64,000 nucleotides of DNA from an uncultured Polyangiaceae bacterium (GCA_964459035.1 CAYWLO010000003.1:30520-94519); one strand, 5' to 3'; counted from the stretch's first letter, positions 2,277 through 58,200 are shown. Numbers and translations: made by a program. The notes: generated by a model not told the origin, from the letters alone.

Positions 2277-2890
2277 GATACTTGCCTATTGGGTAGTGTT
2301 TTCTCTGCGCAGCGTGTGCAAATCGTGCGCCCTGTGCGCACGTGGTATGTGCCTCTTCCGCCCACGTCGATAGGGCTTTCACAGGCGTCGCAGAGGGTGC
2401 CAAATTCAAGAATTATATCATTGAAGCCTTCTAGAGGAATCGGAACGCCGTGCAGTTTTTTCGCACGTGCCTTTTCCTTGACTATCTGCTTGCGAAACGA
2501 TTCGTCGATGAGGCGAATTTTTTCAACGCCCCGATCACTCAAGCCCGCTCGGCGAAAACATGAGCAGAGGAGTTCTTCCCGGTAGTCAAAGAGCTCATTG
2601 GAGATCACCATCCAATGGTGAGCATTGCGCGGTCGATCTCCAAAATATCCCCGCTCTCCCGCAATGATGCCACGCAGAAAAGAATATTGCTGCTCAGCAA
2701 CTCGAGACTGGGTGATACCTTCAAAAAAGTGGGCTAGGCGCGAGTCCAGAAATACGCGGGCGTAAAAATCCTTGAGAACGACGGAGAGTAGTTTGCCCTC
2801 CTCAAGTTCACGCCAGAGCTCGGGTGATGAACTCAAGGGTCCTTTGCGTTCGCGCGTTGAGAAAGGTTTAGATTGACTGGCTGTAGACAC
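2273..2890 (-). CDS. bacterial-like (truncated) globin with a C-terminal zinc-ribbon-like tail
   Basis: 205 aa. The globin-like core reads LKDFYARVFLDSRLAHFFEG...QQYSFLRGIIAG...RPRNAHHWMVISNELFDYREELL. The tail carries CDAC...(17 aa)...CTRC. Confidence 0.7.
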   Translation of the reverse strand: MSTASQSKPFSTRERKGPLSSSPELWRELEEGKLLSVVLKDFYARVFLDSRLAHFFEGITQSRVAEQQYSFLRGIIAGERGYFGDRPRNAHHWMVISNELFDYREELLCSCFRRAGLSDRGVEKIRLIDESFRKQIVKEKARAKKLHGVPIPLEGFNDIILEFGTLCDACESPIDVGGRGTYHVRTGRTICTRCAEKTLPNRQVS

Positions 2891-2923
2891 GCAGGGAGAG
2901 TAGCACTTTATATGCCAAGCCTC

Positions 2924-3934: not shown

Positions 3935-4017
3935 ATCCTGTCAGAGCTTTTATGTTCTGGCCAGAAAATGGGTCTGACGGCCGGAAATTAATTCTTGTCC
4001 AGCATTTCGAGAACTAT

Positions 4018-4674
4018 TTAACGCAGTCCACGTCTTTTTCTTTCCAGCTCTGCCAGACGGGTCACCACGCCTCGGGCAACAATTGCCAGGACCTGCTTCG
4101 TCAGTGCAATTCGCTCCGCGGGGCGTCCACCAAAGCTCAAACGACTTTTAGCGCTGCGTCGGCCGGGCAAGCTGCCGACGGCTTCGCACTGTATTCTCAA
4201 AGCGCCATCGTCAATTGCATAGCTAAGTTTAGACACCTCGAAGCGGTATTCTATGCGATTGTCTCGGCCTGCACCCCAATCTGCCCTGTAAGCTTCTCGC
4301 TGGAGAGCCCGTTTGAGGTGTTTCTCTAATCCAGCCGAGCCGTGGATATTCTTTGGAAACTTGAGGCTATCTAGATGAATTTCCGGATGCCCAGTGCGAG
4401 ATTTTTCACCATCTTCGCCCAGTGCCACGGCTTGAATTTGTTTTACACTAAACAAATGAGCAGTTCCTTGAGTCTCCTGTGCTTCGAAATGGCCTTCTGT
4501 CAGTGGCGCGGCTTGAAGCCCCTGCGTCTGAGAGAGCCCAGCGAGGGGGATCAAGAGCGCCCCCGCAATCCATGGTCGAATAAAAAGACGAGAACGGTGA
4601 CGAGAAGCGGGGGTAAGGGGCAGAACCAAGGCAGACACACGCTGATAGTAAGTTTTCTTCGGTGTGGCGGACAA
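4018..4674 (-). CDS. hypothetical secreted protein
   Basis: 218-aa ORF with a basic N-terminus followed by a hydrophobic segment (RPWIAGALLIPLAGLSQTQGLQAAP). No recognisable catalytic motif. Confidence 0.5.
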   Translation of the reverse strand: MSATPKKTYYQRVSALVLPLTPASRHRSRLFIRPWIAGALLIPLAGLSQTQGLQAAPLTEGHFEAQETQGTAHLFSVKQIQAVALGEDGEKSRTGHPEIHLDSLKFPKNIHGSAGLEKHLKRALQREAYRADWGAGRDNRIEYRFEVSKLSYAIDDGALRIQCEAVGSLPGRRSAKSRLSFGGRPAERIALTKQVLAIVARGVVTRLAELERKRRGLR

Positions 4675-4785
4675 CTATTTCATGAAACGAGCACAGGCCC
4701 AGGCGGAGATGTCGAGTCTCAGCAAGTCTTCTTCAATGATTGTCCCGTTACGTAGCCCTTCAAAGCAAGGTAGGGTCCATGGGCG

Positions 4786-43179: not shown

Positions 43180-46100
43180 GTGGGCGCCATGGCTGCACAC
43201 TCCAAGTCGCCCTCTTCTCTCAAGCCTGTTAAGAAAGGAGAGCACGCGGCGTCCAAGAAGACTCAAGGAGCCAAGCCTAGTCCACCGCGCGCAAAAGCAG
43301 CGAGCGCAAAAGCGGTCCCACCTCGTCCGCCGTCGATGAAACCATTGCCACCCCAGGGCGGGGGACTGGGGGCGTCAAAAGCTCGACTGAAACCAACACC
43401 TCCTCCTCCGCAAGCGTCTTCATTGCCGAATCCACCGGCTCGGACCGCCCCGACTATACCTCCCCCGCCCAAACCTCCAGGGGCTCCCCGCAAAAGTAAT
43501 GGGATGAGCCTGCCTGCACCAACGGGCAAAAGTGCATCGATAGCGCCACCACCAGGGAGACTTGTGAATCCCTCCGTTCAGCCTCCCCTAGCGAAGACAC
43601 CCCCGCCACCACCCGCTCTGGTCGAAAAGAGAGAACGTGGCACGCAAGCGATGGCCCCTCAAGCACCCGCCCCTCGGCCGGTTGCTCCTCAAGAGAAACA
43701 TGCCCAGGCGGCAGTTCCCCACGTCGAGGTAGCTGATCTTCAGGTTGCGGTTGCAAAACAAGCCACGCGAGGGGGACCGGTAAGGAGCGAAGTCAACTCG
43801 ACCCTCGTTGGAATGCCTGTGGTTTCGGCTGCGTATTGTCTTGCTTCAAAAGCATATAGCCGAGTGGTCGCGGACAGCCGCGTTGTTGCCCCTGGGCTGG
43901 ACGACCGCAAGAACGCAGCTCAAGAAATGAGAGCACTCTGTGAGCATGCTCTCAGCGAAACTACAGAGAAATCTAGAAAATCTCGTCTCCTGCACGAAAT
44001 TGCTCGCCTTGAGGAGGTCGTATTTGTTGACCATACGCGCGCACTCGAGAGCTTTCAGAAGGCACATGTCTTAGACCCTTCTTTTGAGCCGGCCCTTGAA
44101 GGTTTGATTCGTCTGCGTTCTGCCTTGGGTCAATGGGAAGGGACCTTGTCTCTCTTGGACGAGCAAGTGGCGCTGACGGCTACGGCAGTGGACAAGGCTG
44201 CATTGCTCTTCTCCAAAGCCACCATCTTGGAAGAACACTTGAATCGTCTTTCGGACGCGCGCATGGACTACGAGCGCGCTCTGACACTTGCGCCTAACGA
44301 TGGCGCTATTTTACAGGCCGTCGCCCGGTGTGCCCGGCGAGATCAAGACTGGAAAAGCCTCGACGCATCTCTTACAATTCAAGCCAAAGAAACTGACGAT
44401 GATGTAGCTTTGGGGGCTGTTCGTTGGGCTGAGCGAGCTCGAATTGCGGAGCAATTTAGAAAGAAATCAAACGAAGCCGCTGAGCTTTACGAAAAGTCGT
44501 TTGATGTCGATCCCTTAGCGAGCGCTGCCATTTACGCCCTCGAGCGTATTTTTATCATTGCCAAGCGGCCCCGCGACCAAGTGGCACTCCTCGAAAAACG
44601 TGCCGAATTGGTCGATGAACCAGCCGTGCGCGCCGCAGCGCTCGCTCATGCTGGCGCTATTTTAGCTAACAGTCTACGGGAGCCCGCCGAGGCCGCTCAA
44701 TTTTACGAGCGCGCTTGGGAAGCCGCACCCGACAATCTTTCTTTTTTACGAGAGTTAGAGGAACTTTACCGAAAACTAGGGCTTTTCGACGGAGTGGTTC
44801 AGGTCTTACGACGTCTCGAAGAACGGGGGGCCACCCCCGAGGAACGCGCCGCCCTCTGCGTGAGAATCGCTGATGTGCTTTCGCGTCGTCTGGGGCAAAA
44901 ACGGGACGCTTTGGTTTATTGGGAACGTGCCCGAGAGCTGACTCCTACGTTAACCAGTTGTATCCAACCGCTTTGCGCCCACTACGAAGCCTCTGAGGCG
45001 TGGACTGAGCTTCTACATGTATTAGTTCAAGAAGAAGGCGCAAGCCAAGACGCTCAGCGGCGCGCAGAGTTACATTGTCGCATTGCTCGCATTCACGAAA
45101 AGCAGTTGGGCTCTTCCGATGAAGCGATTGAGCACTACAGAAAAGCGTTGGGTCTAGTCCCTTTGGCAGAGGGTGCCTTTCGTGAACTCAGTCGATTGCT
45201 GGAGAAGGCAAGGCGTTATGAAGAAGTGGTCGACCTGCATTTTCGGGGCTCCGAAACCGCGAGCGATACTGCCATCTCTCTGGTTCATCTTTTTAAGGTG
45301 GGTCAGGTTCTTGAGGGCCTTTTGGGACAACCGGAGCGTGCAATACCAGTTTATCGAGACATTTTAACACGGCAGCCAGGACATCTGGGGGCGCTATTTT
45401 CTTTGCAACGTGCGGCCCAAGACGCGGCCGACTATGCTGTTCTCGTCGATGCTCTTCTCGAAGAGGCTGGCACCTATCAGAAACCTACTTTAAAGGTTCC
45501 ACTTTTGCATCGGGCAGCTCAAGTTTGCCTCGAGTCTTTGGGACAAGAAAAACGTGCACTGGAGCTCCTCAACAATAGTCTGACTATCGACCAGAAATAC
45601 GCTCCCAGCCTAGAAACACTAGCCGCATTGCACAATACGGCGGGGCGCTACCCTGAGTTGCTGAAGGTCCTCAATCAACAACTCTTAGTTCTTAAAGAAC
45701 CAGTGTTGGTTTCACAACAATTGTTTCGCATGGGACGTTTATGCGAAGAGCACCTTGCTCAAGACGACAAAGCACTCACCTATTTTAAGAAGGCGTTTGA
45801 CGCTGACTCTCAGGGCGAAGACCTTGCTCAGGCTATCGAACGATGCCTTGAGCGCATGAATTCATTCGAAGAACTCGCCGAGTTTTTGCAAGAAAAGCTA
45901 AAAAGCGTCGAGCCTGGACGCGTTGGTGCAGACTTAGCCTATCGCTTGGGGGTTCTCTTTGAGTTGCATCTAGGGAAATTGCAAAATGCGCTCATTTATT
46001 ATGAACGTGCCCTCGAAGAGTTGCCCGATCATCGCCAAGCTCTTGATGGAAAAGTTCGAGTTCTGGAAATTCGCTCTGAAAGTAGGAAGACCGTTGCAGC

Positions 46101-48891
46101 TTTGGGGCAGCGTGCCGAACGCTGCACAGATCCTTTGGTACAAATGTGGGCAAGGCTTCGTCAGGCCGAAATTTTAGAGAATACCTGCAAGGACTTGGCT
46201 GTACCAATCAGTGCCTACGAAGAATTGGTAAAGATCTATCCATCGCATCCTTTTGCATTGGTTGCTCTTCAGCGTTTGCATCAGTCTGAAGGAAATGCCG
46301 ACCAGCTAGCTTTAGTGCTTCAGCAGCAAGTGGCGGCGTTCCGTTCTAAGGACAATCAGGTCAGCGCGTTGCGCCATCTGCTGGCCTTAGAAGAAGGGAA
46401 CCTGTCGGCCAAAATCTCAAAGAGCGACGCTTCGGCGCCCGCAACCGATGAGGAGGGGCAACCACAGGCACCAGTACCTGCCCAAGACAACACAGCAACC
46501 TTGGTCGGAATTGCAAAGATGATTTTCGAGCGGGTTCCGCATGATAGAGCCGCGTTGCGTTCTGCGGAGCTTGCCGCTCTGGAGACAAATAATGGAGAAT
46601 TGCTGGCCAGTGTCGACGTTCGATTTGCCCAATTGAGCGAGCAACCCGAATTAGCCGCCGCTCACGCTGCGCGCTTGGGAGAGTTTTTGGAGCCGCGCAA
46701 CCCCGTGCAGGCGTTGGCTCAACATCGGCCCGCTCTCAAGTGGGACTCCGAGAATATTGCGGCGGCACGAGGCATCGCCCGAATTTCTGAGGTTGTCGAT
46801 GATCCTGCCCTTCTCTTAGAAGGTGCTGCTCTGGAGGCAGCGGTGGTGCACAATCCCGAGAAGTCTGCAAAATTGTATACGCGTGCAGCCGAGTTATTGG
46901 CTCAGGGGGGAGAGTCCGAGGAGGCGGCTTCTTGTTTGAAGAAAGCGCTCCTCGTTTTTCCTGACTCAATCGTGGCCGCTCAAACCCTCCATGGTCTTCT
47001 TTCAACTCGTTCCGAGTTTGATGAGCTCTCTGCTGTACTTTCGACGGCTGCTCAATCCTGTTCGTCGCCTGAAGCAATGGCAGAACACTGGATAGCGGTT
47101 GCAAAGATATTTGCAGATGAGCGTGACGACTTGCCCGCAGCCATTGCCGCCCTCAAGCGTGTCGAAAAATCTGGCATCAAGAATTTACCTGTCGCGTTGG
47201 AGCTTTCTGAACTTTATATTCGTGATCGACAATGGGCTCTTGCTGTTGAACAATTGTCAAAGGCGCTCATTCTCGATCCGGGTAATCAGGTGCTTCTTGC
47301 CCTAAGAATGCGCCTTGCCGAGATCTATCACGAGCACCTCGACAAGCTGAGCGATGCAGCGCGTGAGTTGCGAGCCGTATTACGTATCGACCCTGAGCAT
47401 ATTGCCGCTTTGCGTCGACTATTGGCCATTCAAATGACCATGAAGTCTCCAGGTGCCTTAGAGACCTCTCAAAGTCTCGCCGATGTTTCTCAGGGAAGGG
47501 AACGGGCGGAAGCCTTGGTTGCTTCAGGTAAGTTGCTCGCTCGGGCTGGAAAAATTGGCGATGCAGTGCATCCATTTGCCTCAGCTATTGCCTTGGTCGG
47601 CCTAGAACCCGACGACGCCTCTCAGGGAATTTGCGCCATCTTGGACAAGCAGAGCGGCGAAGCGGCTACTTGGTCCGGCTATGCAACCGCTCTGTCGGCG
47701 TTTTGCTCGGCAAGCACCCCAGGAGAACACCAGGCGCGTGTCTACGTAGAGTGGGGGCGCGTGCTAGGAAAAAAACAGAACAAGACAGCCGAGGCAATTG
47801 GGGCTTTGCAGGCAGGGTTGAGAAAAAATCGAGATGCGGCGCAACTGCGTATCGATCTCATCACCTATCTCATGAAAAAATCCCAGTACGGGGAGGCATT
47901 GCCCGAAATTTCAACTCTCTTAGAAACCGCACCGTTGCGAGGAGATTCCTGGGCCGATTTAGTGACCGTTTATGAGAAGATGGGCAAAAATGCTGAATCA
48001 TCAATTGCTCTGGGCCCCCTAGTTCATGTGGGCCAGGCGAGTGAACTGCAAAAATCTATGTGGGCGGGGCGCGCTGCTCAGCCTGCTCTCGTGAGTGAAG
48101 GCGCATTCGACGCAGAGGCACTCTCTCAAACTCTTTCTCCCCAGGCGTCCCCCGAAGCAATTGCGCTTTTGGCACATTTGGCGGGGCCGTTGTCAAAGGT
48201 GTATCCCCCCCAATTGAAGAATTTGGGGGCTTCAGGGCGAAAGAAAATTTCGGCCAAAGGGCTTCATCCTTGCAGACCTGTTCTTGATCGACTCTGTCTG
48301 AGTTTTTCTAGCCCTCCAATCGATCTATATCCCTCGGAAACCGTCGAGGAAATTCACGTGGTCATGACAGATCCTGTGGGGTTGGTGATTCCTTCTAGTT
48401 TGGGAGATCTCTCGGATGTGGAGCAGGTCTGCTACCTTGGACGTTTCGTCGCGAATATCGCCCGAGGCACCCACGCTGTTGATGCACTCACCGAAGAGCA
48501 GCTGCGTTTGGCAATGGCAGCCGCCTTGCGCATGGTGGACGCACCAGGGGACGACTCAACAATTGAAAGCGCGGATCTAACTAAGATTACGAAGAAGTTG
48601 ATCAAAGCGATGCCCTGGCTTTCAAAAGGTCGCATCGAAGAAGCAGCCCGTCATTATGGAGGGGCTCCTTTGCAAGATGTTGGAGAGCTGCGAGAACAAC
48701 TGCGAGCGTCCGCTTTTCGAGCCGCTCTTATTTTGGCCGATGATATTTCGCCTCTCTTTGACCTCTCCAAGGGGGGCTCTCGCTTAGTGGGCGAGCCAGA
48801 TTCGAGAATAGAGTCTCTTCAAGCTGACTTATTGCCCTATTGGGCCAGCGTGGGGGCGATGTCTCTGCGCCGACAATTAGGAATGATCTAA
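43180..48891 (+). CDS. giant TPR-repeat protein (about 1900 aa) with Pro-rich N-terminus and non-TPR C-terminal module
   Basis: The first roughly 170 aa are Pro/Ala/Lys-rich. Dozens of TPR-like units follow (ARMDYERALTLAPNDGAIL, AAQFYERAWEAAPDNLSF, AIEHYRKALGLVPLAEGAF, ALIYYERALEELPDHRQAL...). The start is GTG 43180 or ATG 43189. Confidence 0.8.
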   Translation: MGAMAAHSKSPSSLKPVKKGEHAASKKTQGAKPSPPRAKAASAKAVPPRPPSMKPLPPQGGGLGASKARLKPTPPPPQASSLPNPPARTAPTIPPPPKPPGAPRKSNGMSLPAPTGKSASIAPPPGRLVNPSVQPPLAKTPPPPPALVEKRERGTQAMAPQAPAPRPVAPQEKHAQAAVPHVEVADLQVAVAKQATRGGPVRSEVNSTLVGMPVVSAAYCLASKAYSRVVADSRVVAPGLDDRKNAAQEMRALCEHALSETTEKSRKSRLLHEIARLEEVVFVDHTRALESFQKAHVLDPSFEPALEGLIRLRSALGQWEGTLSLLDEQVALTATAVDKAALLFSKATILEEHLNRLSDARMDYERALTLAPNDGAILQAVARCARRDQDWKSLDASLTIQAKETDDDVALGAVRWAERARIAEQFRKKSNEAAELYEKSFDVDPLASAAIYALERIFIIAKRPRDQVALLEKRAELVDEPAVRAAALAHAGAILANSLREPAEAAQFYERAWEAAPDNLSFLRELEELYRKLGLFDGVVQVLRRLEERGATPEERAALCVRIADVLSRRLGQKRDALVYWERARELTPTLTSCIQPLCAHYEASEAWTELLHVLVQEEGASQDAQRRAELHCRIARIHEKQLGSSDEAIEHYRKALGLVPLAEGAFRELSRLLEKARRYEEVVDLHFRGSETASDTAISLVHLFKVGQVLEGLLGQPERAIPVYRDILTRQPGHLGALFSLQRAAQDAADYAVLVDALLEEAGTYQKPTLKVPLLHRAAQVCLESLGQEKRALELLNNSLTIDQKYAPSLETLAALHNTAGRYPELLKVLNQQLLVLKEPVLVSQQLFRMGRLCEEHLAQDDKALTYFKKAFDADSQGEDLAQAIERCLERMNSFEELAEFLQEKLKSVEPGRVGADLAYRLGVLFELHLGKLQNALIYYERALEELPDHRQALDGKVRVLEIRSESRKTVAALGQRAERCTDPLVQMWARLRQAEILENTCKDLAVPISAYEELVKIYPSHPFALVALQRLHQSEGNADQLALVLQQQVAAFRSKDNQVSALRHLLALEEGNLSAKISKSDASAPATDEEGQPQAPVPAQDNTATLVGIAKMIFERVPHDRAALRSAELAALETNNGELLASVDVRFAQLSEQPELAAAHAARLGEFLEPRNPVQALAQHRPALKWDSENIAAARGIARISEVVDDPALLLEGAALEAAVVHNPEKSAKLYTRAAELLAQGGESEEAASCLKKALLVFPDSIVAAQTLHGLLSTRSEFDELSAVLSTAAQSCSSPEAMAEHWIAVAKIFADERDDLPAAIAALKRVEKSGIKNLPVALELSELYIRDRQWALAVEQLSKALILDPGNQVLLALRMRLAEIYHEHLDKLSDAARELRAVLRIDPEHIAALRRLLAIQMTMKSPGALETSQSLADVSQGRERAEALVASGKLLARAGKIGDAVHPFASAIALVGLEPDDASQGICAILDKQSGEAATWSGYATALSAFCSASTPGEHQARVYVEWGRVLGKKQNKTAEAIGALQAGLRKNRDAAQLRIDLITYLMKKSQYGEALPEISTLLETAPLRGDSWADLVTVYEKMGKNAESSIALGPLVHVGQASELQKSMWAGRAAQPALVSEGAFDAEALSQTLSPQASPEAIALLAHLAGPLSKVYPPQLKNLGASGRKKISAKGLHPCRPVLDRLCLSFSSPPIDLYPSETVEEIHVVMTDPVGLVIPSSLGDLSDVEQVCYLGRFVANIARGTHAVDALTEEQLRLAMAAALRMVDAPGDDSTIESADLTKITKKLIKAMPWLSKGRIEEAARHYGGAPLQDVGELREQLRASAFRAALILADDISPLFDLSKGGSRLVGEPDSRIESLQADLLPYWASVGAMSLRRQLGMI

Positions 48892-48936: not shown

Positions 48937-49845
48937 TCAGCGAACGCCGAGCACGAGGCCGCGTTCCGACAGATTGGCGAGAAGCGTTGCGCACCCATTG
49001 AGAACCTCCGGAGAGAGAGCTTGTCCCAGCTTGGAGCAGGCTTTTTCGATGGCATCTCCCAGGTGGGCCCCTTGCTTCAGGTGGTGCAAGAGGGAGCTCG
49101 CTAGGGGGGAGAGATCCATATAACGAATGTCATTCTGTGGATCGCGGTAGGCGAGCAAGTAGGTAGGGCGCATTGGTGGCACGCTCTTGTCGTCCACCGC
49201 CTCAGGCAATTGATGCACCGCATAGGAGAATTCCAAAAGTTCACTGGCCTCGGTGAATTGAAGCCCAAGCTCAAGTGCTAATTCGTGCTCTTGATTTTCG
49301 AGACCAATTTGGTCAGGGGCGTCACTGCTTACAGGCTTTTTGTGTGGGGTCATTGTAAGCTGGGCCGCGACTGAAATACGCGCAGCCTCCAACTGAGCGA
49401 GCTCTCCAATGTAACGAGGCACGTTGGCCGAAACGTGGGCTTTGTAATAATCTAGAAAAATAGGTGTAATATCTCGCAAAAAGCGTGATTTAAATGCTTG
49501 GCTATCTAAGAAATCTTCAAAAATGGTCTCAAATGTCGAACCTAAACGAGCGATAGCGCGCGGCATGGCAAGCTCGAGTACTTGCATCAAGGTCGCTCGC
49601 ACCAACTGCCGATAGATGAGTAGGCGCGAGCTTGGTTGCTGCACCAAGTACTTTTGTTGAGCCGGACTGAGGCGTGCCTTGGTACAAATGAGCTCAATGA
49701 ACTCACCATCGTTGCCTGCTTTTTTGCTGAGTACCAGCAGCGCATAAAAAGTTTCTATGGCTCGCTCCTTGTCAAAAGGAAGTTGAGCCAATTGCTCTTG
49801 CCACGTGCCCTCGCACTCTTTGTTTAAGCTGCTTTTACTCACCAC
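48937..49845 (-). CDS. DUF2063-family protein (MbnC/BufC-like partner of DUF692)
   Basis: SRLLIYRQLVRATLMQVLELAMPRAIARLGSTFETIFEDFLDSQAFKSRFLRDITPIFLDY fits the DUF2063 N-terminal pattern. I moved the start to GTG 49845, 8 nt after the DUF692 stop. The track ATG 49971 would overlap DUF692 by 119 nt. Confidence 0.7.
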   Translation of the reverse strand: MVSKSSLNKECEGTWQEQLAQLPFDKERAIETFYALLVLSKKAGNDGEFIELICTKARLSPAQQKYLVQQPSSRLLIYRQLVRATLMQVLELAMPRAIARLGSTFETIFEDFLDSQAFKSRFLRDITPIFLDYYKAHVSANVPRYIGELAQLEAARISVAAQLTMTPHKKPVSSDAPDQIGLENQEHELALELGLQFTEASELLEFSYAVHQLPEAVDDKSVPPMRPTYLLAYRDPQNDIRYMDLSPLASSLLHHLKQGAHLGDAIEKACSKLGQALSPEVLNGCATLLANLSERGLVLGVR

Positions 49846-49852
49846 AAATCGC

Positions 49853-50734
49853 TCATTTTCTGGATCTGATGGTCTGGTCGTAGATGTCTTGTAGCTGATG
49901 CACTTCGAGGAGAAGTTCATGCAGATCGGGGATATTGTTGTCCCTCTCAAGAACCACCGGGACCGCACCAACCAACTGAAGGGTCTCTTTAAAGAGAGTC
50001 TTTACTGAGTTTGCAATGGCGCTACCATGGGTGTCGAGGAGCATGCCCGCTGCCGGGTGAGGGGGGGTGAGTTGCGAATGACCTGCCATATGCAGTTGAA
50101 CTACTTGCTCGTGGGGCAAGGACTGTATGAATTGCAGAGGATCGTAATGATGATTCATGCCATTCACAAATACGTTGTTTACATCCAAAAGAAGCCCCGC
50201 GCCGCTGAGATGGAGCACTTCGCATAGGAAGTCACACTCGCTCATTTCTGGCTGAACAGGCTGGGCGTAAAATGAGATATTTTCTATGCAAAAGGGGAGG
50301 GCGAGCTCATCCTCAATACTCTTAATTCTATTGGCTACTCTACGGGCACAGCGTTTCGTGAGGGGCAGGGGGAGTAGATCGTGGAGCACTAAAGGGCCAG
50401 CAGTGCTCAAACAAAGATGATCTGAGTGCCAGGGTGTGCTCATGCGCTTCGTTTCTGATGCAAGGGCTTGCATATAAGAAGGGGCAGGAGAGTCGACCGC
50501 CCCGACGCTCATAGTGAGTCCGTGGGTGACAAAATCGTAGTGGTCGCTGAGTTTTTCAAGGGCCTCGGGGAAGAACCCTCCTCTACCCATGTAGTTTTCT
50601 GGGGAAACCTCCCAAAAAACTACGTCGGTGGCGCAGCTCTCTAGAACCTCCTCCAGAAAATCCCAGCGAAGCCCTAAACCAACGCCGCAGAGCTGAGCTC
50701 CTCGCTCTTTGGCTTCTATATAACTCTTGGTCAC
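49853..50734 (-). CDS. DUF692-family (MbnB/TglH/BufB-like) multinuclear non-heme iron enzyme
   Basis: GVGLGLRWDFLEEVL, FWEVSPENYMGRGG, THGLTMSVG, WHSDHLC, LHDLLPLPLT, IENISFY, LLLDVNNVFVN, LHMAGH, LLDTHG and VVLERDNNIP give full-length collinearity with the UPF0276/DUF692 TIM-barrel family. Confidence 0.88.
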   Translation of the reverse strand: MTKSYIEAKERGAQLCGVGLGLRWDFLEEVLESCATDVVFWEVSPENYMGRGGFFPEALEKLSDHYDFVTHGLTMSVGAVDSPAPSYMQALASETKRMSTPWHSDHLCLSTAGPLVLHDLLPLPLTKRCARRVANRIKSIEDELALPFCIENISFYAQPVQPEMSECDFLCEVLHLSGAGLLLDVNNVFVNGMNHHYDPLQFIQSLPHEQVVQLHMAGHSQLTPPHPAAGMLLDTHGSAIANSVKTLFKETLQLVGAVPVVLERDNNIPDLHELLLEVHQLQDIYDQTIRSRK

Positions 50735-50792
50735 AAGTTTCTCATGGTGCCTGAGCTCCCTGTGCGGGCCCTTGGTAAAACTACGCGAGGAC

Positions 50793-51119
50793 TTAAGGTG
50801 TAGTTTCTGGCGTTACTTTTTTCTGTCCGGCGGGAAGAGCAGCGGCGTCCTCTTGTCCGGCGGGAAGAGCAGCGGCGTCCTCTTGTCCGGCGGGAAGAGC
50901 AGCGGCGTCCTCTTGCTTGCTTGGGGAGTCTTGCACCACCTGGTTTTCTGGGGAGTTGATGCTTGCCTGTTCTACTTCAATCAGGGGAGTGTCCTCGGGG
51001 AGATCCTCGTAGACGGGAGTCGATTCTGGATAGGTCGCGTAGCCGGCGGAGCAGGCCCCAGCTAGCAAACTGAGGAAAACAAGAGGGGCCGCGACGAGGG
51101 CTGAAGTAATGCGAAGCAT
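50793..51119 (-). CDS. small secreted/lipoprotein-type acidic repeat protein; candidate substrate of the DUF692 pair
   Basis: 108 aa. The signal peptide MLRITSALVAAPLVFLSLLAGAC is followed by an acidic/Pro-rich region and three repeats of QEDAAALPAG. It lies 58 nt upstream of the DUF692 gene on the same strand. The only Cys is the putative lipobox Cys. Confidence 0.6.
   Translation of the reverse strand: MLRITSALVAAPLVFLSLLAGACSAGYATYPESTPVYEDLPEDTPLIEVEQASINSPENQVVQDSPSKQEDAAALPAGQEDAAALPAGQEDAAALPAGQKKVTPETTP
50824..50913. repeat. 3 x 30-bp perfect tandem repeat
   Basis: The unit TGTCCGGCGGGAAGAGCAGCGGCGTCCTCT is repeated three times without a mismatch. On the minus strand it encodes the QEDAAALPAG repeats. 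Confidence 0.95.
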
Positions 51120-51226
51120 GTTCAGAGCTTATCCTCATTTGTTGATAGATGGCTACGCAGGCCGAAGTTACAGGCGCTTTTAGACCGGAAGCGTTGGTGA
51201 AACATCGAGAGAGAGTCGAAATTCCT

Positions 51227-52123
51227 TCAGTGCTCGGGGCGCGTGAGGTTGAACTGAAGACTACCTTCTACCTTGACGACGCGTCCGATTGTGTCGCCGA
51301 ATAAAGAGAGTTCTTGAGTGAGTAGCCGTCCGGCGCCGTCTCGAGGACTAATTTCGTATTCTGAGAGCGGAACGGATAAATTGCCCTTGAGGGCTACCTT
51401 GATTCCCGTGGGGAGCGTGCTTTCCTCGTCGTATTGAAAGGTGAGGGCGAGGGGAACTTCGCGGTGTACCGAGAGCGAACGCAGAGCGAGATCACCTACC
51501 GCCCGCGCGTAAATAAGCCGCGAATAGCCCGGTTTACCGTCGCTTCTTTTGCGTTTAGCGCCCTTGTGGGCGGCATTTTTTGACAATTTAGTCGCAGAAC
51601 GGATCTTGAAGAGGACAAACTGCTTTTCTGCTTTGGCGGCCTCTGTGTTTTTTTCACCGAGTTCGAGCCAATGCAGTGCTTGGGTTGTCCAGCTGGATGC
51701 ATCGACCAGAGCCGGCTTTTTTTCGGAGAGTCGGGTGCGCTTTCGTTTGTGTGGGGACGACTCCTGCATTTGGAGTTGGGCTAGATCGAGTTTTATCAGT
51801 CCTTGGACTAATTCGAGGTGCTTCAAGTCGAGCGATATTTTGCCGCTGATGCCCGAGAGCACCCCCTGAGGCGAGTTTTTTCTGGTGGGCAGCGAGAATC
51901 TTAAATTTTGTTTGTCTGCGAGCGTAAAAATCGCACGTGGCGCCTTTTGGGGTTGGGAGTCTGTGCCTGGGTTCTTCTTCCATGGTTCTGTGCGTGCAGG
52001 GGTCTCTTCTGGGGCTTTCTCACAGGCGCAGACTGCTACCACCGAGAAAAAGATGAAGGCGCGCACAATGAGATGCTCTGAGGAGCGAGAGAAAATTGTT
52101 GGTGAAGTCAAAGAGAAGCGCAT
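51227..52123 (-). CDS. YceI-like putative lipoprotein
   Basis: I prefer ATG 52123 ([34 protein letters not shown]...). The track start at 52507 would run antisense through thrC. The layout is YceI-like: [13 protein letters not shown]...IKLDLAQLQ, then [20 protein letters not shown], then [10 protein letters not shown]. Confidence 0.5.
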
Positions 52124-52180: not shown

Positions 52181-53518
52181 GTGGCATCTACCCCAGAGTA
52201 CAGCGCAGAATTTCGATGTTTTAAGGGCTGTAAAGGCAGCTGGCCTGTAACCCAGGCTATTTATTCCTGCCCGTCGTGCGGCGGACTTCTTGAAGTCCAC
52301 CACGATATGGACGCTCTGAAGAAGAGAAGCGGACCGGGCTGGACGAAACTTTTTGACGAACGGTACCGTCTCAATCAATGGCCCTATGGGTCGGGTGTTT
52401 GGGGAAAACGCGAGTGGGTCATGCCTTCGGTGACCGACGACGAGGTCGTCTCCATGTACGAAGGAGGCACCAACCTTTTTTGGGCAGAGCGTTACGGTCG
52501 CGAGCAAGGAGTGAACGACTTATGGGTGAAGCTTTGCGGCAATAGCCATAGTGGTTCTTTTAAAGACCTCGGCATGACCGTGCTTGTCTCTGTCGTTAAA
52601 AAAGCCCTGGCCGCTGGCACAAAGATCAAAGCAGTAGCGTGCGCTTCAACCGGCGATACGTCTGCCGCTTTGGCTGCCTATGGTGCTGCCGCTGGCTTGC
52701 CCGTTGTGGTGCTTTTACCCCGCGGCAAAATTTCTACCGCTCAATTGGTCCAGCCCCTCGCCAATGGCGCAATGGTCTTGGGACTCGACACCGATTTTGA
52801 TGGTTGCATGAAAATCGTCAAGCGTTTGGCCGAAGAGGGGCATGTTTATCTTGCCAACTCGATGAACCCCCTGCGCTTGGAGGGGCAAAAAACTGTAGGT
52901 ATCGAGATTGTGCAGCAATTTGGCTGGCAGGTACCCGATTGGATTGTGTTGCCCTCGGGTAACTTGGGCAATGCCTCGGCACTTTATGCCGGCTTTCGTA
53001 TGATGAAAGACTTGGGCGTTATCGATCGATATCCTCGACTCGCGGTTGCCCAAGCTGAAAACGCTAACCCCATGTATCGCGCCTTCAAGGCAGGTAAAAC
53101 AGAGGTGGAGTCTGTTGTGGCGAAACCAACACAGGCAACAGCCATTCAAATTGGCGCGCCGGTATCGGCACCCCGCGCAATGGTTGCCCTCAAGGCAATG
53201 AACGGAATTGTCGAGCAAGCCAGCGAGCAAGAACTCTCCGATGCCGCTGCGCGAGCGGACGCCACCGGGATGTACACTTGCCCCCACACGGCCGTGGGCT
53301 TGGCTGTGCTGGAGAAATTGCGCGCCAACAACACCATCAAGTCGTCCGACAAGGTTGTGTGTGTTTCGACTGCAAATGGGCTAAAATTCACCGGCTTTAA
53401 GGTAAAATACCACGAAGGAAAAATTGACGGCGTCAATAGCAGTTTACAGAACGAAGCTGTCATTGTCCCCGCCGAATACGGTAAAGTAGTGGACGCTTTG
53501 AGTAAGCGTTTCTCCTAA
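52181..53518 (+). CDS. thrC: threonine synthase
   Basis: It has a Zn-ribbon-like N-terminus (FRCFKGCKG...[12 protein letters not shown]), the PLP lysine motif [14 protein letters not shown], and [13 protein letters not shown] and [10 protein letters not shown]. The start codon is GTG. Confidence 0.95.
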
Positions 53519-53870: not shown

Positions 53871-55112
53871 TTAGAATGTGAGGCGCGCGGCGGCTCCGCC
53901 ACCATGACGATTGCCGTAGGGGGCCACCATGAGACGGGTTTTCTTTACTTTGGCGAGGGCCGCTTCTGCGGCGGCGTCGTCATGGGCTGTGAGGAGAACG
54001 TAACCTGTAACACCGAGGGTGATGGCTATGCCAAAGCTCATGTCAGCGATGAGTGCGTTGCGCTCAGCGGCGTCCGCATTTTCTGTAGTTGGATCGTCGT
54101 TGAAGTCGCTTTTGGCATTGAGGGCCAAAATACCAAAAATCGTCCCCGAGATGAGTCCCGCTCCCGCGAGACCGAGGGTGACAGCCGCAGGAACAATGCT
54201 GGGCTCCTTGACTGCTACAGCGGTAGTCGCCGCAACGGGAGCTGCAACTGGAGGAGCCACTTCGACTTGGACCAAGGTAACTTCTTGCTCGCTTTGGGCT
54301 CCACCGATGGCATTGAAATCGAGCAATTGGCTCTCGTGGCCCTCGAGGGCAACAGCGATTTTATGAGCTCCCTCGGGCAGAGAGAGTGTGAGAGGGGTGA
54401 CACCAGCGATTGCTTTACCGTCAACCGTTATGGTCGCTCCTGCCGGAACGCTGATCACTTTGAGGGCGGCCGGGAGTAGTTTGGTGAGCTCTTTAAGACG
54501 CGTTTGTGCTTTGTCTAGCTCAGGGGCACCCGCGTGATTTGCCCCAGGATTTGAGAGAAATTTAGAGTAGGCGTCTACTGTCTCCTGGAGATGCTCCCCT
54601 TGAGCGTCTGCCTTGTCGAGGGATGCGGCTATCCAGTACTCGGCGTGTGGCGAGGGGAGAATTTTGTGAGCTTTCTTAAATTCGTTGGCTGCACCCGCAA
54701 AGTCGCTGGACTCGAAGGCTGTCTTGCCGGCTTCGAAGGCGGTGCCAGCACTGGCAATTTGCTCGGGAGTGGGCGCGGTAGGAGTTTCGGCTTCAGGGGT
54801 AGTTGTTTTTTTGTCCTCTGCAGCTGGGCTCGTCTGAGTCTCGGGAGTTGTGGCACTGGCAGCGGCAGTTGTACTGGCAGCGGCAGTTGTACTGGCAGCG
54901 GCAGTTGTACTGGCAGCCGGCGGGGCTGCTTTTTTAGTCGTCTTTGCCTGAGGTGCTGGGGGCGTAGACGCTGCTGCTTCTGCAGAAAATGCTGCTGGAG
55001 CAAGTGTGGTCAACACCAGGGAGACTGAAAGGAGAGCTCCCCGGAGGGCCACGCGAGGTAAACGAGAGCGGGGAGAGAATGGCAGGGGACGACTGAGTAT
55101 AAACTTATGCAT
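53871..55112 (-). CDS. PEGA-domain protein with signal peptide, Ala/Thr-rich repeats and C-terminal TM segments
   Basis: I prefer ATG 55112 (MHKFILSRPL...LTTLAPAAFSAEAA). The PEGA block reads LKVISVPAGATITVDGKAIAGVTPLTLSLPEGAHKIAVALEGHE. A TPR-like helical segment is present, and the C-terminal hydrophobic segments are LGLAGAGLISGTIFGILAL and FGIAITLGVTGYVLL. Confidence 0.75.
   Translation of the reverse strand: MHKFILSRPLPFSPRSRLPRVALRGALLSVSLVLTTLAPAAFSAEAAASTPPAPQAKTTKKAAPPAASTTAAASTTAAASTTAAASATTPETQTSPAAEDKKTTTPEAETPTAPTPEQIASAGTAFEAGKTAFESSDFAGAANEFKKAHKILPSPHAEYWIAASLDKADAQGEHLQETVDAYSKFLSNPGANHAGAPELDKAQTRLKELTKLLPAALKVISVPAGATITVDGKAIAGVTPLTLSLPEGAHKIAVALEGHESQLLDFNAIGGAQSEQEVTLVQVEVAPPVAAPVAATTAVAVKEPSIVPAAVTLGLAGAGLISGTIFGILALNAKSDFNDDPTTENADAAERNALIADMSFGIAITLGVTGYVLLTAHDDAAAEAALAKVKKTRLMVAPYGNRHGGGAAARLTF
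54855..54917. repeat. about 3.5 x 18-bp tandem repeat (ACTGGCAGCGGCAGTTGT) encoding (AASTTA)n
   Basis: Read directly from the DNA. It is in frame within the PEGA-protein gene on the minus strand. Confidence 0.9.
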
Positions 55113-55259
55113 GTTCGATACGGCTCCGAGAAACCTGTTTTCTTTGGGCGAGCGCCCAATAGCGGTAGGATAAACCGGCAATGTCTCGCGCGACAATAGC
55201 TTGTTGATGATTGCGCCAATATGATAGGTTTTTGTCCCTAATTTCTCCATTTATCTTCT

Positions 55260-58200
55260 ATGGACTTGTCTCAAAAAGAGGACCACCAGAGTTCTCAACG
55301 CCCCCGTGCCCTCTCGGCCTCTGCCTCTGGCCCCGATTCGGGGCCCATTTTGCCCTCTTCTTCTGTCGAAGAAGAGATTGAGCGTTTTGCGGGGCAGCAG
55401 GCTCCTTTGGGGGCCTTTGCCGCACAAATACGCAGTGCCACAGCGCAGAGCGCCAAGGCGTCCTCGGCGGGGCGCTTGGCGCGTGTCTTAGCTCAGCGAA
55501 AGATTGAATTACGCGAAGCAATTGGTTTAGCTGAAAAGTCATTGAAACTAGACAGTGATCCCGATTTGGCGCGCGATCTCTCCCAATGGTGGGTGGGAGT
55601 TGGTGACTGTATTCGAGGAGCCGCTCTGCTGAAGTTGTGCCTGGTAGATTTACCAGAGGACGAGCAGGGGGAGGTTCTTCTGACAATCGCCCACCTTTAC
55701 GCTCGTGCTGGGCAATCACATCACGCGGTGCAGGCCCTGCGCGATGTGATGAAACGAGGAGACAGAGACGCGCGCCCCTATGAGATGCATGGGTCTTTTG
55801 GTTTTTGGTCCGATTTGGCGCCCGTCGAATGCTCTCTTTCTTATCTGCAGGCCGCTAAAATTCGAAAAAGCGCAGGAGAAGAGGCTGCTGCTTTTGAGAA
55901 TCTATTGCGCGCTTTTGAGGTGGCCCCCACATTTTCTGAGGCGGCTCAAGCCCTAGCTATCTCTTTGAGAGAAAAGGAGCGCGGGGGGGCTGCTGATGAG
56001 ATTTTACGAGAATACTTGCGAAGAGGTAGTGACGCGCAACGAGCAGCTCATCATCAACGAGCATTTTTGATTGCGTTAGCCGATACGGAGTATTCAAAAA
56101 GCTGGGAGTCGGCCTTGGAGGCCGAGTTGGAAATAGATTTAGACCCCCTTCGCTTGAGCGCTGTTTTGGCCGAGGAAGAGTGCAGCGAACCAGATGATTT
56201 CGAGTCTTTTTTGGTGCATTTGGCGCGTAAATCTAGCCTGGGAGATGAAGATTCGTTTACAATTGTTCTTCTTGCGCTGGTAGACGGGCATATCTTTGAT
56301 TGGGGCGAAGAACAGGTTTCTGCCTTGCGAGATCAGATAGCCACTTCATTGCCGGCAGCTCTTGAGCTGGGGGGAAGGGTTCCACGTGCCTTGGATTCGC
56401 CTGGAGACGAGCAAAAGTTACGCGAGTTGAGGAAAGAACTGCCTTTTGTATCAAGCCAGAGCGAGGGGAGAAGCTTGCGCTCAGAGATTGCTGTGAGAGA
56501 GTGCGCGCGGGGTGCGTGGGCTGATGCCTTTGAGGTATTTGAACCTCTCTTGCTGGATGAGGACCTCTCGCTCTACGTAGCTTCGTTGGGCGTGCTAATT
56601 GCCGGTCGCTGTCGCAACCTTCTTGGTCGCGCTCAAGCCTTGGTCCTTCAAGGAAAGAAATTACCAGGAGCCGTGGGTGCTGTGACTCTCGCTGTGTCGG
56701 GAGAAATGCTCCTCTCTCAGGGGCATTCGGCTGAGGCCCGTCGCGCAACGGAGGCGGCCATTGAACTTTCTCCAGCAAGTGAGCGCGCATTGGCATCACA
56801 AGCGGTGGTCGCTCTGAGTGCTCCCGAGGGGGCTTCTGCTGGTCAGTTGGAGCGTTCCCTTTCGGTTTTAGTAGCGCGCGGGGAAGCTTGCGCACTTTTA
56901 TGTGATTCTGCTAACGAACGTGAGTCATATCGCTTGGGCTTGACCTGGGCTGGTCGGGCGCTCGCCCTGCGTCCTGGAGACGAAAAAAGCATGAGAGTGC
57001 TTCTGGAGCAGGCGCAACGCACGGGAGACATTGCTTTGCTTGAAGAGTCCCTCTCTCATGTGATGTCCTTGCCCGCTCCGGCTACCTTGGTTGTTGAGAG
57101 CATCGCTCAAGCTATTGGGGGGCTCGGTGGTCTTTTACCTGAGGCTGCCGAAGAGCTTGGCTCCCGAGTCTTGGAGAATTTTGGAGTACGTTTCCCCGAG
57201 ATTGTTCGCTCTTTGACTGAATTGGGTCGGGCATGCGGCGCTCCTCGTCTTTTGGCGTCCATTACTGAGCGCCAATTGGTGACGGCGACTCGCCCCGAAC
57301 GAGCAGAGTTGTCTCTTGTGCTCTGTCGCCAGAGACTCAATAGCGGCGAGTCGAGTGCCGCTATTCGTGCCTTGCGTCGTGCCTTGGCCCAGGGGGCCGA
57401 ACCCACTTTGGTCGATGAGATTCTCAAAGATTTTTCGGAAAAAATTGATGCTGACGGTGTTCTAGCCCTCCTAGAAATTAGGGCTGATTTGCTCGAAAAG
57501 ACTGAGCCCTTGAATTTGAACGCTCGCGCTCGATCGCTCAGACATGTGGGAGTTGCGCGCTTTGATATGGCGCAAGATCTCATTGGCGCGGTACTTTTAT
57601 GGATCAAGGCGGCAGAAATTGAACCGGAATTTGGTTTAGAGCATTTGGGAAGACTCTTGCATCATTTGGCTGGCCCCGAGGGAGCGATTGAGCATTTGCG
57701 GAGGATAGCCGCCCAGACTGAGGCCCCCGAACGCTCGGGTAAGCTCTTAGGGCTTGTAGCTTGTGAACTGCGCAGTTTAGGCAAAAAAGAAGAGGCATTT
57801 GCCACCTGTGTAGACGCCCTGCAGAGAGCTCCTTTACTGACAGAGTTTTTAGTCGTCGCAGAGAGCTGTGCTGAAGCTAGTCAAACGCCAGAGTTGAGCG
57901 ATCTTTATGACCAGATGCTCAAAGCTGTCATGGGGAGCTATGGCGAGCGAGCGCTGCATTACCGCGCGGCTTGTGAGCTAGAAAGTCGTGGTGTTCTGGA
58001 CTCCGCTCTCGCTCATGCTTGTGCTGCTTTCGAAGCCGTTCCTAGTGATGGGGTGACGTTTGTATTGATGTCACGCTTGGGAAGTCTTTGTGCGAGTCCC
58101 GAAGTGGTGGTGGGCGCCTTGGAGCGTGCGGCGGGCGCAGCAGAGTCTGATGAAGAGCGAACGCGTTGGCTGGGCAAGGCCGCAGAAGCTGCAGACAGTG

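Follow-up and report, generated by a model that had tools for sequence, protein, structure and literature searches.

A bufferin/captophorin-type cassette of an uncultured Polyangiaceae bacterium with a small lipoprotein lacking the cysteine core found in relatives

Background

In bufferins and captophorins (BufABC, HvfABC, FonABC), an MNIO enzyme and a DUF2063-type PME1 partner convert Cys to 5-thiooxazole in Sec-exported, copper-binding peptides. A Cys residue is strictly required by FonBC (PMC13097082). A truncated bufferin gene has been described (PMC12452194), and the supplement of PMC12452194 contains one mention of a YceI gene in a bufferin BGC. Precursors with a CxxxxC motif and a Sec or lipoprotein signal, encoded beside MNIOs, as well as stand-alone precursor genes, have also been described (PMC12452194; PMC13056109). 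The two sets used for comparison here are the signal-peptide 'CxxxxC' putative precursors (Antoine et al. 2025, PMC12452194) and the lipoprotein-signal CxxxxC 'Cluster X' DAG-RiPP candidates (PMC13056109). Activity in this superfamily is not confined to Cys, as other MNIOs demonstrate (ApyH on a C-terminal Asp, MovX/PflD on Asn, and the ortho-Tyr-forming MNIOs).

We compared with these systems a locus in a 64,000-nucleotide stretch of DNA from an uncultured Polyangiaceae bacterium, hereafter the window, and its counterparts (numbered L001 onward) in related genomes.

The cassette and its surroundings

The locus consists of four genuine minus-strand ORFs, as the initial annotation had it, encoding a YceI-like lipoprotein, a 108-aa lipoprotein, an MNIO (DUF692) and an HvfC/DUF2063-type partner. 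Signal-peptide and lipobox calls on these proteins were made by inspection of the translations. The features of the region are as follows.

43180..48891, plus strand: 1903-aa TPR protein (TPR families in the Pfam scan), convergent with the HvfC gene
48937..49845, minus strand: HvfC/BufC-type partner, with a weak DUF2063 N-domain and an NGO1945_C RRE-like C-domain (NGO1945_C E = 2.6e-15)
49853..50734, minus strand: MNIO (DUF692), 293 aa, GTG start, HvfB/BufB-like subfamily (PF05114 E = 5.8e-82)
50735..50792, minus strand: intergenic region, where relatives carry the Cys core (frame translations against AKAGCGAGTCG-stop of relatives)
50793..51119, minus strand: 108-aa lipoprotein, very probably a core-less homologue of CxxxxC precursor lipoproteins (ORF; positional homologues; N-module HMM)
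50824..50915, minus strand: perfect 30-bp tandem repeat, 3.1 copies, encoding QEDAAALPAG three times (Tandem Repeats Finder, 100% matches)
50940..51050, minus strand: conserved N-terminal module of the mature protein, SAGYATYPESTPVYEDLPEDTPLIEVEQASINSPE (alignment A3, 14-sequence alignment)
51051..51119, minus strand: signal peptide and lipobox-like LAGAC with Cys23 (inspection of the translation)
51227..52123, minus strand: divergent YceI-like lipoprotein, 298 aa, first gene of the conserved cassette (ORF; homologues match PF04264)
52181..53518, plus strand: PLP-dependent enzyme, threonine-synthase-like (PF00291 E = 1e-59), divergently transcribed

One syntenic site holds the cassette across dozens of Polyangiaceae genomes. 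The order PALP / YceI-like / small ORF / MNIO / HvfC / TPR is repeated in L001, L002, L004, L085, L087 and L096, and the unit YceI-like / small ORF / MNIO / HvfC occurs in at least 55 of 84 loci. Two flanking genes are synteny anchors outside the cassette: that of the PLP-dependent enzyme, whose orthologues (77-96% identical) stand beside it in many loci, and that of the TPR protein, whose orthologues lie downstream of it in L001, L002, L004, L085 and L096. The small ORF of the window is placed between the YceI-like gene and the MNIO gene as in the relatives, and its stop is 58 nt upstream of the MNIO start. The precursor position that had been ascribed to it, directly upstream of the MNIO and with an export signal (by inspection), was confirmed, and the ORF, sought beside the enzyme pair in relatives, is co-conserved with MNIO and HvfC. 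The order precursor, MNIO, partner and the export signal of the upstream protein are shared with bufferins and captophorins. Unlike these, the window has no DoxX and no sigma/anti-sigma genes, which agrees with the initial annotation (Pfam scans of the neighbours, about 36 kb to 64 kb of the window), and a YceI-like lipoprotein gene is linked instead.

The 298-aa YceI-like protein exhibits a signal peptide with ...VAVCAC, followed by the family motif C-E-K...RTEPW. The window protein itself matches no Pfam family at E<=0.1 and no NCBIfam family, YceI included; with respect to an eight-stranded lipocalin-like beta-barrel fold, a profile search of PDB sequences gave 0 hits, and the pLDDT of a single-sequence AF2 model (34.5) was too low to use. 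Nevertheless, of 22 aligned homologues from related loci, whose identity to the window protein is 23-38%, 19 give a PF04264 match (best E = 2.5e-9), in some cases above the 23.7-bit cut-off (maximum 29.4 bits). Like YceI polyisoprenoid/lipid-binding beta-barrel proteins (PF04264), these homologues match most of the domain and have a lipoprotein or periplasmic location; alignment A2 of the family shows a conserved Cys, P-W and a beta-rich C-terminal half. The window protein differs from PF04264 proteins in being under every Pfam threshold, in a large insertion and in the family-specific C...RTEPW motif after the lipobox. The YceI-like label given earlier therefore stands through the family but not for the window protein directly. 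A role as a partner, also suggested earlier, has in its favour only the conserved gene linkage (at least 55 of 84 loci have a homologue on the upstream side of the MNIO).

The small lipoprotein and its relatives

The 108-aa protein starts with a basic n-region and a hydrophobic core, then ...LLAGAC (by inspection). The Cys of this lipobox, residue 23, is the only one in the protein, so that its mature part is Cys-free as claimed in the initial annotation; the same Cys is invariant in alignment A3 and present in all family precursors. Within about 10 residues of it follows a conserved [ST]PV-x-A/E motif and then a low-complexity spacer. The conserved N-terminal module (N-module) extends over about 40 aa, with T, P, TPVY, V, S and P as invariant columns (alignment A3; 14-sequence alignment), and we presume it to be a docking or functional module. 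Its dN/dS is about 0.17 between L002 and L004, both core-less. The protein ends in ...LPAGQKKVTPETTP and a stop, lacking the Lys-rich CG[AQP]G[TS]C[GSA] ending, and the CxxxxC motif is absent from this ORF and from the whole window cassette. A Cys tail conceived for grafting onto this protein reads ...AGAKAGCGAGTCG.

The three perfect QEDAAALPAG repeats reported earlier are real, but they are located in the variable low-complexity spacer and absent from every homologue compared, and the copy number is 2 in the near-identical strain contig L089 versus 3 in the window. Matches found by phmmer against 1.8 billion proteins are confined to the repeat region and occur in unrelated repeat proteins. 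The repeat is probably a recent slippage expansion inside the spacer and no core; the idea that acidic, Pro-rich repeats represent a new substrate class is not sustained by these observations.

In 68 of 80 genome loci, the ORF directly upstream of the MNIO has a C[GAS]xG[TS]C core at its C-terminus. The majority small protein is built of four segments: first a lipoprotein signal, then a short conserved motif, a long spacer of low complexity and, last, the conserved C-terminal core, ...KKAAGAKAGCGAGTCG followed by the stop, with a CxxxxC motif. These Polyangiaceae precursors are long lipoproteins with a disordered spacer, in contrast to the DUF2282, Buf_6/12Cys and EGKCG repeat proteins of bufferins and captophorins, but their Cys is followed by Gly, as preferred by the bufferin/captophorin enzymes. 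They share with the published 'CxxxxC' and 'Cluster X' precursors the lipoprotein signal, the highly conserved C-terminal CGAGTC (CxxxxC) and a place immediately 5' of the genes for an MNIO and a PME1-type partner, and are possibly the same family. However, the example accessions of the published CxxxxC precursors look proteobacterial, and their BGCs often carry DoxX and Lactamase_B_2. The window member departs from them in being entirely without CxxxxC, and from bufferins and captophorins in having no Cys beyond the lipobox.

An HMM of the N-module, built from four relatives and searched against 9842 ORF segments, detected the window ORF (E = 2.5e-9) together with the core-bearing L085 (1.2e-10) and L094 (3e-8). 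These two bridge proteins combine the N-module with the Cys core (...GGCGQGTCG and ...GGCGAGTCG, respectively, each followed by the stop), and the canonical CG[AQ]GTCG likewise ends the N-module homologue of L009. An HMM of the main-family N-terminus left the window ORF undetected, and for this reason its link to the main family rests on the bridge sequences and on synteny. Since the N-module homologues in L085, L094 and L009, like the precursors of 68 of 80 loci, end in a Cys core, the window ORF is very probably a core-less derivative of a Cys precursor.

The window protein and about ten relatives have kept the N-module without the core; the loci lacking the core motif are the window, L001-L006, L087, L088, L092, L093 and L096. 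Core-less L006 has a core-bearing sister, L009 (94-97% bootstrap), and L005/L096 and the window group are further cases: core loss is recurrent in the family. Another frame of 50735..50792 contains a possible weak relic, ARTGSSGTMRNL before a stop (about 16 of 30 nt matching), with nothing similar in close relatives.

The single Cys by the signal peptide (C-S-A-G; C-A-G in relatives) could itself be the MNIO target, instead of or besides being lipidated. It is invariant, is followed by small residues as FonBC prefers, and lies about 10 residues from the conserved module. But the same Cys stands in the L-V-A-C-G-G lipobox of all core-bearing precursors, where lipidation explains it; characterised DAG-RiPPs have the lipobox Cys lipidated, with no MNIO modification (PMC13056109); and it is N-terminal to the presumed docking motif. 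We regard this as very improbable.

The enzyme pair

The MNIO match to PF05114 (MbnB_TglH_ChrH) spans profile positions 1-261 of 263. As with bufferins and captophorins, its best NCBIfam matches are HvfB (256.2 bits, cut-off 360) and BufB (254.3 bits, cut-off 310), both sub-threshold. The MNIOs of core-bearing relatives are likewise under the cut-offs (259-290 bits); this looks like a property of the whole Polyangiaceae subfamily, the enzyme and its partner differing from bufferins and captophorins in falling under the equivalog cut-offs. There was no equivalog-level match to ApyH (79.7 bits versus 400), ChrH (43 versus 600) or MbnB (22.8 versus 325). The partner, found downstream of the MNIO in nearly all loci, scores 57.1 bits with NGO1945_C/HvfC_C (cut-off 27), 23.3 with DUF2063 (27.2) and 92 with NCBIfam HvfC (142). 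The exact start of its gene is uncertain, between 49845 and 49971: the first in-frame GTG is at 49845, 7 nt past the MNIO stop, and independent gene calls on the strain contig give a 301-aa partner starting 10 nt after that stop. Thus the assignment to the bufferin/HvfB kind of enzyme pair (PF05114 MNIO with NGO1945_C/HvfC-type partner) was correct, as was the close spacing of the two genes, though not the figure of 8 nt.

The initial annotation had proposed a new chemistry, with the Cys-free small lipoprotein itself as the substrate of the MNIO/HvfC pair and a non-Cys residue as the target. Candidate targets would be the invariant Tyr, Thr or Pro of the N-module, or Asp/Glu/Pro in the repeats. 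The co-conservation of the small ORF with the pair, the purifying selection on the N-module in core-less lineages and on the pair where no Cys core exists in cis, and the existence of MNIOs acting on Asp, Asn and Phe in other clades (PMC13056109) are all in line with such an activity. However, although the window MNIO shares the PF05114 fold with the non-Cys MNIOs, it is only distantly related to them (ApyH 80 bits versus a cut-off of 400), and its partner is of the HvfC type, whereas theirs differ. Its scores resemble those of its Cys-core-associated sisters, and it falls among the Cys-modifying HvfB/BufB-like enzymes, with no active-site divergence from them. Of the 98 columns with at least 90% conservation among 66 core-associated MNIOs it retains 90. 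It also has the family residue at each invariant column of the 24-sequence family alignment, H71, H103, D105, H106, E151, D184, N187, H215, H219, D234, H236, E263 and D265 among them. Which of these would bind metal, and D265 as the putative catalytic base, were assigned by analogy with MbnB and FonB-D249. Among the conserved columns we found no change specific to core-less MNIOs; 10 deviate in core-bearing L085 versus 4-10 in core-less proteins. This comparison revealed no active-site change that would suggest a new chemistry.

Nor does the small protein point in that direction. The N-module, Tyr included, is present equally in core-bearing L085, L094 and L009, so it is no replacement core; the repeats are unconserved and polymorphic, and the C-termini are unconserved; L092 has the small protein without the enzymes; and the closest studied enzyme, FonBC, absolutely requires Cys (PMC13097082). 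We therefore consider modification of a non-Cys residue improbable, and grade no higher its more specific form, in which the pair docks on, or modifies, the invariant TPVY...VE..S.N.PE module. The locus is best seen as a decayed variant of a known bufferin/captophorin-type cassette and not as evidence for new cysteine-free chemistry.

Is the pair, then, a substrate-less relic, kept by chance or polarity and being lost, with only the YceI-like protein and the small lipoprotein still functioning together? The repeated core loss suggests so, and L092, which could represent the end state, has no MNIO and HvfC at the syntenic site, though the YceI-like gene and that of the small protein are still there; L092 is one metagenome contig of 2.7 kb, in which the TPR protein gene directly adjoins the small ORF. 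The MNIO of L005 carries R264W beside the putative catalytic Asp assigned by analogy, and the truncated bufferin gene has been read as a loss of function (PMC12452194). Against this, more than 10 core-less loci that differ by 28-44% at the protein level have intact ORFs in which every catalytic residue is kept. Between the sister loci L002 and L004, dN/dS is 0.11 for the MNIO and 0.21 for the YceI-like protein. As these two share a core-less C-terminus of the small protein, the low values imply that selection acted after the core loss; by these sequence comparisons, purifying selection acts on the MNIO of core-less lineages (dN/dS about 0.1). A relic is thus unlikely.

Proposed explanation

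Taken as a whole, the locus is best read as derived, by loss of the core, from a lipoprotein-tethered thiooxazole metallophore system, a Polyangiaceae cassette of the bufferin/captophorin type (probability about 0.55). The ancestral, majority precursor would be a lipoprotein with a short conserved motif just past the lipobox Cys, a long, flexible Ala/Pro/Glu-rich spacer and, at the end of a Lys-rich C-terminus, CGAGTCG. On the model of BufBC, HvfBC and FonBC, the partner would dock this precursor in the cytoplasm and the MNIO would turn both core Cys into 5-thiooxazoles. Export by Sec and lipidation would follow, yielding a membrane-tethered, copper-binding tip on a flexible stalk. In the window, the precursor gene would have lost the C-terminal Cys core, leaving an acidic, disordered lipoprotein with the N-module as its only conserved part. 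Because L092 keeps the N-module and the YceI-like gene and has lost the enzymes, these two apparently persist for an MNIO-independent reason.

The intact MNIO/HvfC pair may still form thiooxazoles, on a Cys-bearing precursor from another place in the genome (the product of an L094-type gene, for example), or else be an orphan on its way to loss. Action on a substrate in trans, the fallback of the initial annotation, is now the leading option, at a little under even odds. Such a substrate is hypothetical, as no Cys-bearing precursor was found anywhere within the 64-kb window. L094 itself is a non-syntenic, core-bearing cassette from the same sample as the window's strain, with the same atypical GC and its own MNIO/HvfC; in tetranucleotide composition it correlates with the window at 0.77, a value that some other relatives equal or exceed, and it is not assignable to the window's genome.

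Two further observations count against the reading as a core-less derivative of a metallophore system. It leaves unexplained a long-term purifying selection on the enzyme pair without a substrate in cis, and the presumed docking module is kept in core-less proteins, so the small protein could still be a substrate. If the pair did use the Cys-free lipoprotein, this would explain its purifying selection after the loss of the Cys core, and the HvfB/BufB-like, PME1-dependent MNIO clade would gain its first non-Cys chemistry if that lipoprotein were modified.

Gene content and neighbourhood of the cassette

The initial annotation described four co-directional minus-strand genes between positions 48937 and 52123, and ORF calls confirm them:

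51227-52123, minus strand: YceI-like protein, 298 aa, with a signal peptide and a lipobox-like VCAC
50793-51119, minus strand: small ORF, 108 aa, with a basic n-region, a hydrophobic core and LAGAC; single Cys
49853-50734, minus strand: MNIO (DUF692), full-length, PF05114 E=5.8e-82
ORF downstream of the MNIO, minus strand: HvfC-type partner, NGO1945_C/HvfC_C 57 bits plus a weak DUF2063 N-domain

The first in-frame GTG of the partner ORF lies 7 nt past the MNIO stop. The MNIO obtains its top NCBIfam scores against HvfB (256 bits) and BufB (254 bits), neither of which reaches its curated equivalog cut-off (360 and 310, respectively); ApyH, ChrH and MbnB are remote matches. DoxX or sigma/anti-sigma genes, reported as missing, are indeed absent from the roughly 13 kb flanking the cassette on each side, and a promoter/terminator scan gave nothing exceeding shuffled expectation. 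Two giant proteins with TPR matches bracket the region (43180-48891, plus strand, 1903 aa; 55260-61769, plus strand, 2169 aa). The former has a Pro-rich N-terminus and is a synteny partner of the cassette conserved across the clade. A PEGA-domain protein (53871-55250, minus strand), which exhibits a short tandem AAAST(T) repeat in its Pro/Ala/Thr-rich N-terminal region, is kept upstream of the PLP enzyme in two related loci, L001 and L004.

The window MNIO has thousands of homologues, the closest being 62-66% identical. On the contigs carrying those closest MNIOs, the gene order is PLP enzyme (divergent), a protein of about 300 aa, small ORF, MNIO, HvfC and giant TPR protein (convergent). Scanning one genome per species returned 80 loci at 44-58% identity, all from Polyangiaceae or other Myxococcota MAGs. 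In tblastn searches with the proteins of the window, at least 55 of 84 loci have a homologue of the 298-aa protein on the upstream side of the MNIO, and nearly all of the 84 have HvfC downstream.

The label "YceI-like" cannot be read directly from the 298-aa protein taken by itself: it has no Pfam or NCBIfam match, a homology search returned only the query, a profile search of PDB sequences gave 0 matches, and a single-sequence AF2 model has a pLDDT of 34.5. It does hold through the family. Pfam YceI is matched by 19 of 22 aligned homologues, at E=2.5e-9 in the best case and in some cases above the gathering score, which makes the protein a divergent YceI-like lipoprotein by family membership. 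In the alignment of the window protein (51227-52123) with its homologues, C-x-K-x(4-8)-R-T-E-P-W is strongly conserved just past the lipobox, and a large variable insertion is present in mid-domain. We found in the literature neither a description of this YceI-like subfamily (C-x-K...RTEPW motif) nor a paper tying YceI-like lipoproteins systematically to MNIO cassettes.

The small ORF as a probable core-less homologue of Cys-core precursors

The ORF immediately preceding the MNIO has a common architecture in 68 of the 80 genome loci. It encodes about 95-150 aa, comprising a signal peptide with a lipobox at its end (e.g. LVAC-GG), a conserved motif ESPVEAKEVPAA about 8-12 residues past the lipobox, a long Ala/Pro/Glu-rich low-complexity stretch, and a Lys-rich C-terminus ending ...KKKAAGAKAGCGAGTCG at the stop, sometimes with two or more CxxxxC units. 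This Lys-rich CxxxxC C-terminus (the "core") is absent from the window ORF and from the ORFs of the related loci L001-L006, all of which have in common a clade-specific N-terminal module, C-x(3-5)-TPP[DE][ST]TPVY[AE][DE]...P[IV]xV[EK]xxS[VIL][ND]xP[ED]. An HMM of this N-module, built from four relatives and searched against 9842 ORF segments (all loci plus the window), detected the window ORF (E=2.5e-9) as well as those of loci L085 (1.2e-10) and L005 (3.7e-7); locus L094, scored separately at the same database size, obtained 3e-8. The small protein of L085, a syntenic locus whose MNIO is 62% identical to that of the window, ends ...SEGGCGQGTCG. The C-terminus of the L094 precursor is ...AGSAGGCGAGTCG, and the small protein of L009 likewise possesses both N-module and core. 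Both parts occur together in these three bridging proteins, which shows the window ORF to be the homologue of a Cys-core precursor from which the core has gone. When all window ORFs were searched with an HMM of the main-family N-terminus, the small ORF was not among the matches, so that bridges and synteny are what connect it to the wider family. A word-indexed search with the 108-aa ORF against 5.8 billion proteins gave no match.

The MNIO start is preceded by a 58-nt spacer, in which another reading frame of segment 50740-50775 (minus strand) gives ARTGSSGTMRNL followed by a stop, faintly like the AKAGCGAGTCG core of relatives and including an identical GGCACC. This could be what remains of the lost core; the resemblance is weak, and close relatives have nothing similar.

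The repeat-rich, Cys-free protein had been proposed as a new kind of RiPP core. The small ORF contains a perfect 30-bp tandem repeat of 3.1 copies, corresponding to three QEDAAALPAG units, which are located in the variable spacer of the protein and are found in no homologue. A phmmer search with the 108-aa ORF against 1.8 billion representatives returned 4 matches, all of them between the repeat region and unrelated long repeat proteins. The contig of a near-identical strain (L089), of which the YceI-like protein is 100% identical to that of the window, exhibits 2 units in a 98-aa protein (1685-1981), against 3 units and 108 aa in the window (50793-51119). Either the copy number of the 30-bp repeat is polymorphic, or the repeat collapsed during assembly. 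The repeat appears to be a recent slippage product rather than a conserved core. Given its location, its absence from homologues and its differing copy number, the proposal is abandoned, which removes a false lead.

Conservation and phylogeny of the enzymes

Among 66 core-associated MNIOs, 98 columns are at least 90% conserved, and the window MNIO matches 90 of these; it also retains every invariant column of a 24-sequence family alignment. As deviating columns number 10 in the core-bearing L085 versus 4-10 in core-less proteins, no MNIO change is specific to core loss. The NCBIfam scores of the MNIOs of core-bearing relatives are sub-threshold like that of the window. The L005 MNIO (4001-4867) exhibits a Trp at the position of window R264, a residue invariant in the 66 core-associated MNIOs and adjoining the catalytic Asp; this could point to decay confined to that lineage.

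Bootstrapped NJ trees group the window (100%) with the core-less loci L001, L002, L004, L087, L088, L005 and L096 and with the core-bearing L085 and L094, and place the core-less L006 as sister to the core-bearing L009 (94-97%). Since this pair and the window clade each mix core-less with core-bearing members, the core has been lost at least two times; the trees suggest that the losses were probably more than two, since the branching within the window clade lacks support.

Loci L002 and L004 are sisters (97-99%), both core-less, with a similar C-terminus (...KTPxxPxxK at the stop). The NG86 dN/dS values for this pair of loci are about 0.11 (MNIO), 0.21 (YceI-like protein) and 0.17 (N-module), with dS near saturation; the HvfC comparison is saturated. 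Such low ratios between two core-less sisters indicate that the enzyme pair has been under purifying selection after core loss. It is beside this constraint that the alternative of an orphaned enzyme pair has to be placed, and we regard it as unlikely.

Candidate substrates

In the 64-kb window, neither the N-module nor the combination of signal peptide and C-terminal CxxxxC was found in any other ORF. A 336-aa ORF (2924-3934, minus strand) with CGSGAC in PKKSGCGSGACATPQ was rejected as a precursor: it has no signal peptide, and we consider the occurrence due to chance. The segment PKKSGCGSGACATPQ resembles the Lys-rich CxxxxC core of the family, and the ORF has no Pfam match.

The L094 contig (k141_52367, ENA ERZ27262693) comes from the same sample as the contig of the window's strain. 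It carries a non-syntenic cassette (622-3282) composed of a core-bearing precursor (...GGCGAGTCG at the stop), MNIO, HvfC and a glutaredoxin/GST-like gene, with no YceI-like gene upstream. Its MNIO (P0002) is the top match to the window MNIO. L094 shares the atypically low GC of the window (54.2%; MNIO GC3 of 0.57 versus 0.55, and 0.62-0.71 in other relatives). GC, GC3 and tetranucleotide composition are compatible with a same-genome link and do not discriminate. By these comparisons L094 could be a second cassette of the window's genome or of a sister genome. Several MNIOs occur per Polyangiaceae genome, e.g. 5 in Sorangium cellulosum (supplement of PMC12452194), and stand-alone precursor genes are known (PMC12452194). 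Our leading reading, to which we tentatively give a probability of about 45%, is that the enzyme pair serves a Cys precursor encoded elsewhere.

In core-bearing relatives, HvfC would dock the precursor in the cytoplasm, where the MNIO would convert both Cys of CGAGTCG to 5-thiooxazoles; export and lipidation would then tether a copper-binding tip to the membrane on a flexible stalk. Such a tethered product would fit the DAG-RiPP definition of PMC13056109. These steps are drawn from bufferin, oxazolin and fontiphorin biochemistry (PMC11626156; PMC13097082); gene content, homology, core loss, intact and constrained enzymes and alternative gene states are direct observations. The window would encode the stalk without the tip. 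With a precursor encoded elsewhere, the pair would be expected to leave the native 108-aa protein unchanged and to modify core-bearing precursors, or the small protein if given a ...KKAAGAKAGCGAGTCG tail. Modification of the Cys-free small protein itself is improbable, because FonBC has an absolute Cys requirement (PMC13097082) and the N-module is the same in core-bearing proteins. The lipobox Cys, the single Cys of that protein, is a still less credible target of the enzyme pair.

Other gene states and implications

A metagenome scan with the N-module revealed locus L092 (Ga0079224_100226557, 25-2619), where the convergent TPR gene comes immediately after the YceI-like gene and the gene of a core-less small lipoprotein. 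As the TPR gene directly adjoins the small ORF, MNIO and HvfC are absent from this syntenic site; the N-module and the YceI-like partner, both retained there, thus persist for an enzyme-independent reason. Conversely, in a clade formed by the Polyangiaceae loci L011, L032, L042 and L048, MNIO (at 4001 or 3494) and HvfC come directly after the YceI-like gene, with neither a small precursor ORF nor a CxxxxC core within 4 kb. The core-bearing precursor of L013, L024 and L045 is encoded some 2.4 kb upstream. Through these gene states, the element that stays constant is the YceI-like gene.

By analogy, the window cassette would work like the bufferin/captophorin systems, to which it is related, but differs in its equivalog scores and in having no Cys in a core. 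The parent Polyangiaceae family, compared by description, fits the published putative CxxxxC precursors with a signal peptide or lipoprotein signal (PMC12452194; PMC13056109). We regard the cassette as an evolutionary puzzle, not as new chemistry. Genome-mining pipelines that need a Cys in the upstream ORF will skip core-less loci, and those that treat the upstream ORF as the substrate will assign these loci wrongly. A large Polyangiaceae family of lipoprotein-tethered CxxxxC precursors, known here from sequence, is documented and linked to a YceI-like lipoprotein; here the Cys core has disappeared on several occasions, with purifying selection on MNIO and partner continuing. Its four states (core-bearing, core-less, without enzymes, without precursor) constitute a natural experiment on whether the enzymes act in trans, and also bear on the role of the YceI-like and stalk lipoprotein pair without a metal-binding tip.
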